From Candidatus Adlerbacteria bacterium (GTDB taxonomy: Bacteria > Patescibacteriota > Minisyncoccia > Phycocordibacterales > SBAW01): a stretch of 37,523 bases of DNA. The number at the start of each line of letters is the position of its first letter. Position 1 is the stretch's first letter. The stretch covers positions 317,276-354,798 of the forward strand of contig DAIDHJ010000001.1 of the NCBI GenBank assembly GCA_027451965.1, in the 5' to 3' direction. The notes beneath the pieces were generated by a model that worked only from the letters and a program-made list of their open reading frames with translations, did not search any database and was not told where the DNA came from. Positions 2,576 to 3,941 of this stretch are shown in pieces. Position numbers and translations under genes: made by a program.

Positions 2576-3031
2576 ATGAAAATACTTTCTATTATCGTTG
2601 GAATTATCATTCTCATCTGTATTGTATTGGGTATTTGGTTCTTTATATCCCAAAGACAAACATCACCTTCTTACTTGCAAAATAATCTTGGATCTTCATT
2701 TCCTATTCCTACACAGACTTCGAACAATTCTTCTAGTTCATCACAACAGGCTTCTTCTACACAGGAAGTAACACAAGCATTTTCACAACAAACAAATATT
2801 AGTGATCCTACTCTTACTGCAGGTACTGCAATAGTAGTATTTCCTTATGCCCTCCAACCATGGAGCACCACCAACGGCGGAGGTGCAGCATTGCTACAGT
2901 ATGACTCTGTCAAGGGCTGGGTATTAATATCAGGAGGAGGTGGTGTATGGGATGTTCCTTCGCTTGTCACCACAGGTGTTCCACAGACAATTGCTATACA
3001 ACTTATTACTGCATTAAAACAAGGTAAATAA
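2576..3031 (+). CDS. Membrane-anchored extracytoplasmic protein, paralogue of 3106..3486 (candidate immunity/partner protein)
   Basis: Starts 3 nt after the pilin stop. N-terminal TM, Ser/Gln linker, domain YALQPWSTTNGGGAALLQYD..W...GGGGVWDVPSL. Confidence 0.75.
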   Translation: MKILSIIVGIIILICIVLGIWFFISQRQTSPSYLQNNLGSSFPIPTQTSNNSSSSSQQASSTQEVTQAFSQQTNISDPTLTAGTAIVVFPYALQPWSTTNGGGAALLQYDSVKGWVLISGGGGVWDVPSLVTTGVPQTIAIQLITALKQGK

Positions 3032-3291
3032 TAAACATACTGGTTTACAAAAAAAGAAACCCCTCTTATAAAGAGGGGTTTCTCGCTGTTCTCTATCGAT
3101 CAGCGTTAGTGCTGAGAGCGTGTTCCTGCGATCAGCTTTTCAGCGATGGATTTTGGAACATGGAAGATGATTAATGAAGGAACATCCCATACGCCACCAC
3201 CACCACTTTTGAATACCCATCCTCTGGAGGAATCGTATTGTAGCAATGCTGCACCTCCGCCGTTGGTGGTGCTCCATGGTTGGAGGGCATA
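2846..3291. repeat. Perfect 53-bp inverted repeat (2846-2898 / 3239-3291) inside two convergent paralogues
   Basis: TATGCCCTCCAACCATGGAGCACCACCAACGGCGGAGGTGCAGCATTGCTACA at 2846-2898; exact reverse complement at 3239-3291. Confidence 0.97.
3049..3083. terminator. Intrinsic terminator between the convergent paralogues (stronger U-tract on the - strand)
   Basis: 13-bp stem AGAAACCCCTCTT-ATA-AAGAGGGGTTTCT preceded by an A run. Confidence 0.85.
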
Positions 3292-3486
3292 TCCTCTCCA
3301 ACCATTGGAGGTGTGCTCGCATACGACCGTCGCTCTTGCAACTGTCACAGGGGTTACGTTCAGATTGATTGATGTTTGCCTGAAAAATGCGGCAGCAACT
3401 ACGGCAGCATCTGAGGTACACTTTGCTGATGCGATTATGGGAGTCATCCACAGAGCGATCAGCAGAAGAATAGCGATATTGCGCAT
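3106..3486 (-). CDS. Secreted small protein, paralogue of 2576..3031
   Basis: Strong SD GAAAGGAG, signal peptide ending in ASA, same YALQPWSTTNGGGAALLQYD domain. Confidence 0.8.
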   Translation of the reverse strand: MRNIAILLLIALWMTPIIASAKCTSDAAVVAAAFFRQTSINLNVTPVTVARATVVCEHTSNGWRGYALQPWSTTNGGGAALLQYDSSRGWVFKSGGGGVWDVPSLIIFHVPKSIAEKLIAGTRSQH

Positions 3487-3524
3487 GATGCGCTCCTTTC
3501 ATTACGTTAAAGTTCGTTCAAATA

Positions 3525-3559
3525 GAATTTAATCATATTATAACTTACTTGTCAAGTAA
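3525..3559 (-). promoter_or_regulatory. Sigma70-like promoter with a palindromic -35 box
   Basis: On the - strand TTGACA-18 nt-TAAATT. The -35 sits in the palindrome TTACTTG-A-CAAGTAA; 16 bp are identical to 17745-17760. Confidence 0.6.
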
Positions 3560-3618
3560 CTAGAAAATATGGCTTAGAATTGCGCTATTTGTACAAGTAC
3601 GATATAGTGCTTCTTGTT

Positions 3619-3793: not shown

Positions 3794-3864
3794 GGGCCTA
3801 TAGTTCAATGGTAGAATAGCGGTCTCCAAAACCGTTGATCGAGGTTCGAGTCCTCGTGGGCCCG
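3794..3864 (+). tRNA. tRNA-Trp(CCA), 3' CCA not encoded
   Basis: GGGCCTA/TGGGCCC acceptor, GCGGT-CT CCA AA-ACCGT anticodon arm, GGTTCGAGTCC. Confidence 0.96.
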
Positions 3865-3941
3865 CCCTAATTTTTACCCTATAAAATCTGAACGTTTGGA
3901 TATGGTGATGTCATAGGTATAGTAAGGTGGAAATATTCTGT

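Follow-up and report, generated by a model that had tools for sequence, protein, structure and literature searches.

Two small genes in the genome of a Candidatus Adlerbacteria bacterium face each other tail to tail and carry, within otherwise diverged coding sequences, an inverted repeat of 53 bases that is identical at every position. The locus raises the question of whether this repeat is a switch, across which a DNA segment inverts and exchanges the ends of two proteins, or the footprint of a copying event between two old gene copies. The window, by which we mean the whole stretch of 37,523 nucleotides that was analysed, lies in the main contig (548 kb) of a genome that totals 552 kb and is 99% complete. 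The gene order around the repeat is clpB (partial), tRNA-Tyr, a T4SS-pilin-like gene, gene A (+ strand) and gene B (− strand), and continues from B with rpmG, tRNA-Trp, a gene for a DUF347 membrane protein, miaA, parB, a relA/spoT homologue and topA. The T4SS-pilin-like gene (1547–2572, + strand) encodes 341 amino acids and matches PF18895 at 40.2 bits (cut-off 26.6). Gene A (2576–3031, + strand; an open reading frame of 151 amino acids) lies directly 3′ of it, with a start 4 nucleotides past its stop, and the two are probably co-transcribed; A thus has the position of a pilin-operon partner, and this order is kept in relatives, whose A orthologues follow a pilin-like gene in the loci inspected. 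Gene B (3106–3486, − strand; an open reading frame of 126 amino acids) is an inverted paralogue of A with the same domain and fits the family profile with an E-value of 4.3e-36. A Shine-Dalgarno-like AAGGAG is found 6 nucleotides before its ATG, and a promoter-like site at 3555–3526. The two genes are convergent, with 74 bp between their stop codons, and both are complete: each begins with a start codon of its own, has an N-terminal export segment and encodes the entire domain. Protein A is composed of a hydrophobic N-terminal anchor, a Ser/Thr/Gln-rich linker and the conserved domain of about 95 residues, whereas the N-terminus of B is signal-peptide-like, with a hydrophobic core and then Ala-Ser-Ala before Lys. 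The first-pass annotation of this DNA had contrasted an anchored with a secreted protein, and A looks anchored and B secreted when the N-termini are judged by eye. An antisense open frame of 128 amino acids (3146–3532, + strand) overlaps B and slightly exceeds its 126 amino acids; a longest-ORF rule would choose this frame, whereas family homology backs B and gives the antisense frame no support.

The domain found in A and B belongs to a family with 690 representatives at E ≤ 0.001 among 1.84 billion proteins. A Pfam scan of A returned no family at cut-off, a PDB profile search with the domain gave nothing below E 0.69, and an Atlas search found unnamed Patescibacteria clusters only. Both proteins weakly match NCBIfam NF033672, a copper uptake system-associated protein (28.5 bits for A and 20.3 bits for B, cut-off 50); taken together with the mine-drainage samples, this match makes a metal-related role for A and B a lead only. 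An AlphaFold2 model of mature B, built with 13 family sequences, reached a pLDDT of 91.5 and predicts a helix, four antiparallel strands and two C-terminal helices. No match was obtained with Foldseek against the PDB at E ≤ 0.001. In a wide structural scan, the best score was a Z of 6.9, for a designed cystatin fold, and TraM, DotI, TrwG, IcmL and PepSY-like domains scored between 4.6 and 5.7; we make no assignment to a cystatin-, PepSY- or VirB8/TraM-like fold family, since all Z values are at most 6.9 and within the noise range stated for the tool. Elsewhere, the domain is also seen in tandem duplication within single proteins, namely members P0003, P0017 and P0103 (233–283 amino acids), which have two to three matched stretches each.

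The left arm of the repeat (2846–2898, + strand) comprises codons 91–107 of A and two bases of codon 108, and the right arm (3239–3291, − strand) codons 66–82 of B and two bases of codon 83. Most of what the first-pass annotation had said of its geometry was borne out. The left arm is the reverse complement of the right at 53 of 53 bases, and since each arm opens with a whole Tyr codon (Y91 in A and Y66 in B) the two lie in a common reading frame of the convergent genes. The next four codons, CAG TAT GAC TCT in A and CAA TAC GAT TCC in B, are all synonymous, and a further perfect island of 17 bp is found at 2945–2961/3176–3192. The 340-bp inter-arm segment (2899–3238, assigned to neither strand) takes in 43.3 codons from the end of each gene, the two stop codons and a hairpin, so that its inversion would exchange the last 44 or so residues in frame and break neither gene. 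The hairpin (3054–3084) is a palindrome with 14 pairs and is called as an intrinsic terminator for B; earlier described as a symmetric terminator, it is palindromic as claimed, but the terminator is scored on the − strand only, where a T-run follows it, and the + strand tail is T-poor, giving A a weak U-tail, so that the hairpin is not fully symmetric. Its centre (3069) coincides with that of the whole 446-bp palindrome (3068.5), which suggests that a fold-back event around the hairpin gave rise to the A/B pair as an inverted duplication.

The 53-bp arms form the outer end of a longer inverted repeat of 161 nucleotides with 77% identity (2846–3006/3131–3291), and identity across it is mosaic: perfect over 53 bp and then about 66% (66% in DNA over the aligned part of the A and B portions of the inter-arm segment), with the second island of 17 bp. 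The 53-bp repeat is real and non-random. No other perfect inverted repeat in the 548-kb contig is as long, the runner-up with arms within 20 kb of each other being 23 bp long, and the genome contains the tract as this single pair and nowhere else. Shuffling the 37 mismatches of the 161-nucleotide arms gave a clean run of at least 53 in 0 of 200,000 permutations. Degenerate codons for the same residue are identical at 16 of 16 positions in the tract and at 9 of 23 downstream (Fisher P 8.6e-5), and a run permutation at the synonymous level gave 813 in 1,000,000; the identical run is thus significantly longer than the divergence of the genes predicts, synonymous sites included. The 23-bp runner-up (contig positions 196559–196931, outside the window; 327-bp spacer) sits where two type IV prepilin-like genes (172 and 179 amino acids) encode their conserved hydrophobic N-terminal segments, and its geometry resembles that of the A/B repeat but the genes are divergent, that is, head-to-head. 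Two smaller features lie at the right arm: a local palindrome (3276–3305, 15 + 15 nucleotides, 87%) is centred exactly on its outer edge, and part of an 8-residue insertion in B just before the tract resembles an inverted copy of the codons after it, a likeness in sequence that would fit a small template-switch event.

An identity that extends to silent sites could be maintained by selection on the nucleotide sequence, acting on a regulatory RNA or protein site shared by both mRNAs or on a read-through duplex. A transcript over both arms would form a long, almost perfect hairpin (−267.8 kcal/mol, z −19.9), and the weak U-tail on A's terminator agrees with this idea. However, a strong fold is automatic for any inverted repeat and counts against giving it weight here, and no Rfam family reached its gathering score at the arms, only tRNA having passed the threshold in the scan. 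Since B is present in no other genome searched, conservation of a nucleotide site cannot be shown, and we rank such selection as the least probable of the explanations weighed.

How old are the two genes in comparison with the repeat? Divergence was estimated by the Nei-Gojobori method, comparing the 37–44 codons after the tract with the tract itself. After the tract, pS is 0.65–0.68, dS about 1.5–1.8, which is saturated, and dN 0.28–0.44, whereas the 13.3 synonymous sites of the tract show 0 differences. A tree built from 13 domain sequences pairs A with B as sisters, with a support of 100/100 and a long stem, and their own tips measure 0.40 and 0.51 substitutions per site, respectively; this sister status and the long tips indicate a duplication that is lineage-specific and old. 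The alignment of B with the family extends over the entire domain, N-terminal helix included, with the 8-residue insertion just before the tract. The saturated flanks on the one hand and the clean tract on the other indicate that the genes are far older than the 53-bp identity.

The distribution of the genes is that of a single-copy family member with one local exception. Among 80 genomes of the genus searched, 12 others have an A orthologue, in one full-length copy, and a second copy of the domain was absent from them, the weak extra matches covering the hydrophobic N-terminus only. Across these 80 genomes and a sample of 401 of the order, the two-copy pair was found in the source genome only; within the order-level sample, two other genomes had a single match each. 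A GTDB-wide contig scan yielded seven loci, all single-copy and none with the convergent pair, word-index protein searches with A and with B returned only the window's own two proteins, and a scan of JGI metagenome contigs with B gave 175 pattern matches, of which 0 were confirmed. The protein and contig collections searched yielded no close strain. We also compared the C-terminal halves of A and B with the orthologue consensus, as a hint of an earlier swap, and obtained a mixed signal.

We consider it probable, at roughly 0.6, that the 53-bp identity goes back to a conversion over a short tract, or a template switch, that took place recently between two old paralogues in inverted orientation. 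Recent gene conversion had been offered by the first-pass annotation as the alternative to an invertible segment, and it fits best, given the complete lack of synonymous change in the tract next to the high pS beside it. The copying event and its mechanism, which we infer, would run as follows. An inverted duplication of the gene following the pilin-like gene would have produced the tail-to-tail genes A and B, possibly forming around the terminator hairpin at its exact centre, and the two copies have since diverged so far that their silent sites are saturated. In a recent event, one copy would have overwritten the other over a short stretch, by RecA-type conversion or by a replication template switch, and this copying between closely spaced arms would have removed every difference over at least 53 bp. 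On one side, the tract boundary would be set by the end of homology at B's 8-residue insertion just upstream. The perfect repeat would accordingly be the footprint of a non-reciprocal exchange rather than a site dedicated to a recombinase. Incidentally, it would provide a substrate for homologous recombination, on which 2899–3238 could occasionally invert and swap the C-terminal halves in frame.

The machinery for the first of these routes is available, as the genome encodes RecA (461 bits) and with it homologous recombination, and since the arms are only 340 bp apart, intramolecular copying would be easy. The locus resembles cases of ectopic conversion, or concerted evolution, of inverted duplicates in its diverged paralogues, its sharply bounded perfect run, its patchy second island and the presence of recombination machinery; unlike them, the A/B tract is short, no donor is identifiable and the event is inferred rather than observed. 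Donor and recipient cannot be named because the copies are identical and share derived residues against all orthologues. The second route would be akin to the correction of quasipalindromes, the classic cases of which have much shorter arms and loops than the A/B repeat. Template switching at such sites, as presented in the available text of PMC7202029, is a RecA-independent route by which an imperfect inverted repeat becomes a perfect one. Conversion accounts for the origin of the identity and does not explain its position on the most conserved strands of the domain.

A more trivial origin would be an artefact of assembly or polishing, in which graph simplification or consensus calling erased slight differences that truly exist between the arms. 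The genome is metagenome-assembled, and bubble-popping can homogenise repeats shorter than a read. Sequencing runs other than the assembly bear on this point. Seven runs contain part of the stretch. The best four of them, all mine-drainage metagenomes of a single study, were compared as Logan contigs, which have a word depth of 3–6 here and drop minority forms. In run X1, contigs end at 2875 and start at 3262, one contig spans 2876–3291, and the breaks thus lie exactly 30 bases inside each arm. In a contig graph with k = 31, which we take to be the Logan setting, such breaks are what identical arms predict, which independently supports identity of 2846–2898 and 3239–3291 in another strain too: between the arms, the X1 contig departs from the window at 17 letters and has 5 gaps over 416 bases, and the flanks show 0–2 differences per contig. 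Neither arm contains a difference among the differences listed for the other runs. With an independent run of a differing strain breaking in this way, an artefact is very improbable.

The same contigs give some information on exchange between the genes. Two SNPs are listed in the C-terminal part of A, 2944 T>C and 2973 C>T, and among the differences listed there both turn A to B's paralogous base; the first, found in two other runs, also extends the 17-bp island. These matches to B's base are a hint of ongoing exchange between the paralogues. Strain-level variation is seen at further sites of the window. The C-terminal half of the pilin-like gene (2176–2312) is a hot spot with dense substitutions in the mine-drainage runs, and runs X2 and X4 have three 1-base insertions at 2217–2232 of this gene. 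At tRNA-Trp (3794–3866), the depth rises to 40–240, compared with 3–6 around it, owing to contigs of many other organisms; the loose contig ends at this site come from those contigs and are unconnected with the repeat.

If the repeat were in use as a switch, both orientations of 2899–3238 should occur. Most contigs break inside the arms because of the k of 31 and carry no orientation information, and stretches left uncovered in some runs carry no weight either, but two contigs cross an arm and reach beyond it by more than 31 bases at either end: record 20 of X3 (3107–3571) joins the head of B to the tail of B, and record 26 of X4 (2597–2963) the head of A to the tail of A. Both of these low-depth contigs are in the reference orientation, and neither an inverted joint nor any other kind was reported in the contigs of the four runs at a depth of 3–6. 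Since contigs hide minority forms, this is weak evidence against frequent flipping and none against rare flipping.

The first-pass annotation had favoured shufflon-like variation by an invertible segment, and this interpretation fared less well than the geometry on which it was built. As it had stated, no invertase is visible in the window, where 0 of 40 open reading frames scanned are recombinases; both genes are full-length, and there is one pair of repeats only. In addition, the tract encodes model residues 44–61, most of strands 2 and 3, such that the predicted inversion junction would lie inside strand 3 and cut one compact domain in mid-sheet rather than fall between modules; the pair is unique to one genome, and the two bridging contigs show the reference orientation.

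Three versions of this idea can be weighed separately. In the first, a programmed shufflon, a site-specific invertase would act on a site inside the 53-bp repeat. The inverted-repeat geometry is all that the locus itself offers in its favour, and 53 bp exceeds the length needed for the core site of a recombinase. A serine recombinase (PF00239) was not found in the 99%-complete genome, and the one full tyrosine recombinase (PF00589) lies 168 kb from the locus and is XerA/XerC/XerD-like, scoring 257 bits with NF040815 and only 53–59 bits with tyrosine-type DNA invertase models that have cut-offs of about 221. An unplaced 1751-bp contig is nearly filled by an open reading frame of 462 amino acids (59–1447) with a marginal C-terminal match to tyrosine recombinases; scanned as a protein, it gave an integrase match of 26.1 bits, below the Pfam cut-off of 27.1, and the contig may be a mobile-element fragment in the bin. 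Classical shufflons and the Hin, Gin and Cin systems, which have a dedicated invertase (an Rci-type tyrosine or a Hin-type serine enzyme) and several crossover sites, differ from this locus, whose genome has no serine recombinase and only two copies of the tract. With a distant Xer-like enzyme, a sub-threshold integrase-like frame and a single repeat pair, a programmed shufflon is highly unlikely.

In the second version, 2899–3238 flips at an appreciable rate by homology and independently of any invertase, so that the parental pair and the reciprocal chimeras coexist and the tract is kept perfect through use. Both products would remain intact, the exchange being in frame and of equal length, the repeat is the longest inverted repeat of the genome, and RecA is encoded. 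Precedent is provided by the hsdS genes of Streptococcus pneumoniae (cod/ivr), at which, according to the available portion of PMC4948785, 85-bp and 298-bp repeats still invert after deletion of psrA, and deletion of recA has no detectable effect on inversion. The hsdS locus is similar in its opposed paralogues, its inverted repeats within genes and its exchangeable 3′ halves; in contrast to A and B, it has, in the same portion of that source, three classes of repeats, partial hsdS genes that are silent and a local invertase gene, and it swaps discrete target-recognition domains rather than cutting a single small domain mid-way. As pneumococcal segments flip without the invertase, its absence here is no proof of a static segment, and we keep a sizeable share of probability on homology-driven flipping.

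The comparison with gene-altering inversions in general is likewise divided. Milman et al. (2023; PMC9881135, as far as the available text goes) describe four attributes that mark validated cases and note nearby recombinases; three of the four are present at A and B. The repeat is 53 bp (their criterion being at least 22 bp) and lies inside two opposed coding sequences, the distance between the genes is short (74 bp, with the repeats 340 bp apart) in an orientation that brings the repeats close, and a flip would yield in-frame protein variants. The attribute with the heaviest weight, and the strongest predictor in the same text, is a truncated partner, in which the stretch between the start and the first repeat is missing. 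This asymmetry is absent here, since both genes are full-length with a start and an export signal. A and B also differ from the cases in that text in having no recombinase in or beside the locus, in being both complete and expressed-looking rather than one active gene with promoterless cassettes, and in showing one repeat pair, no second orientation in the low-depth contigs and a swap that would be reciprocal between live genes. In the accessible text of Chanin et al. (bioRxiv 10.1101/2023.03.11.532203), inversions of this class are termed partial intergenic invertons and are detected by long reads. Functionally, little would be gained from a flip, as the halves that would be exchanged are closely homologous, with identity at 24 of 43 residues. 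With the junction within strand 3 of a single domain, the pair unique to one genome, and 0 inverted joints in four runs, flipping at an appreciable rate is doubtful, though clearly ahead of the invertase-driven form. More tentative than this is the third and most specific version, a recombinase-independent, reciprocal two-gene shufflon in which the 340-bp flip trades half-domains of an anchored and a secreted pilin-operon surface protein; we regard it as unlikely.

Diversity-generating retroelements are common in Patescibacteria, and we tried this class as a candidate as well. They are similar in having two near-identical repeats, one of them in the C-terminal part of a surface protein. Unlike in such elements, the A/B repeats are inverted coding copies, their mismatches are of all kinds rather than adenine-restricted, and a reverse transcriptase (PF00078) was not found in the genome; the candidate was rejected.

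Recent conversion or template switching between A and B is the reading that we prefer, and, if it is correct, the locus is a clean small case of concerted evolution of inverted paralogues in a reduced Patescibacteria genome, in which RecA-type exchange or template switching acts on surface-protein genes. It would also be a caution, in that a long perfect in-frame inverted repeat in opposed genes, the signature sought by inverton finders, can arise without a switch. Should the segment flip instead, this would be an unusual invertase-free form of protein shuffling in an organism with almost no regulatory capacity, acting beside pilus-like genes thought to mediate host contact, and a reciprocal shufflon would make four proteins from two live genes in a 0.55-Mb genome without a dedicated invertase. 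In either case, the domain of A and B represents an uncharacterised family with a confidently predicted fold that is tied to pilin-like genes.
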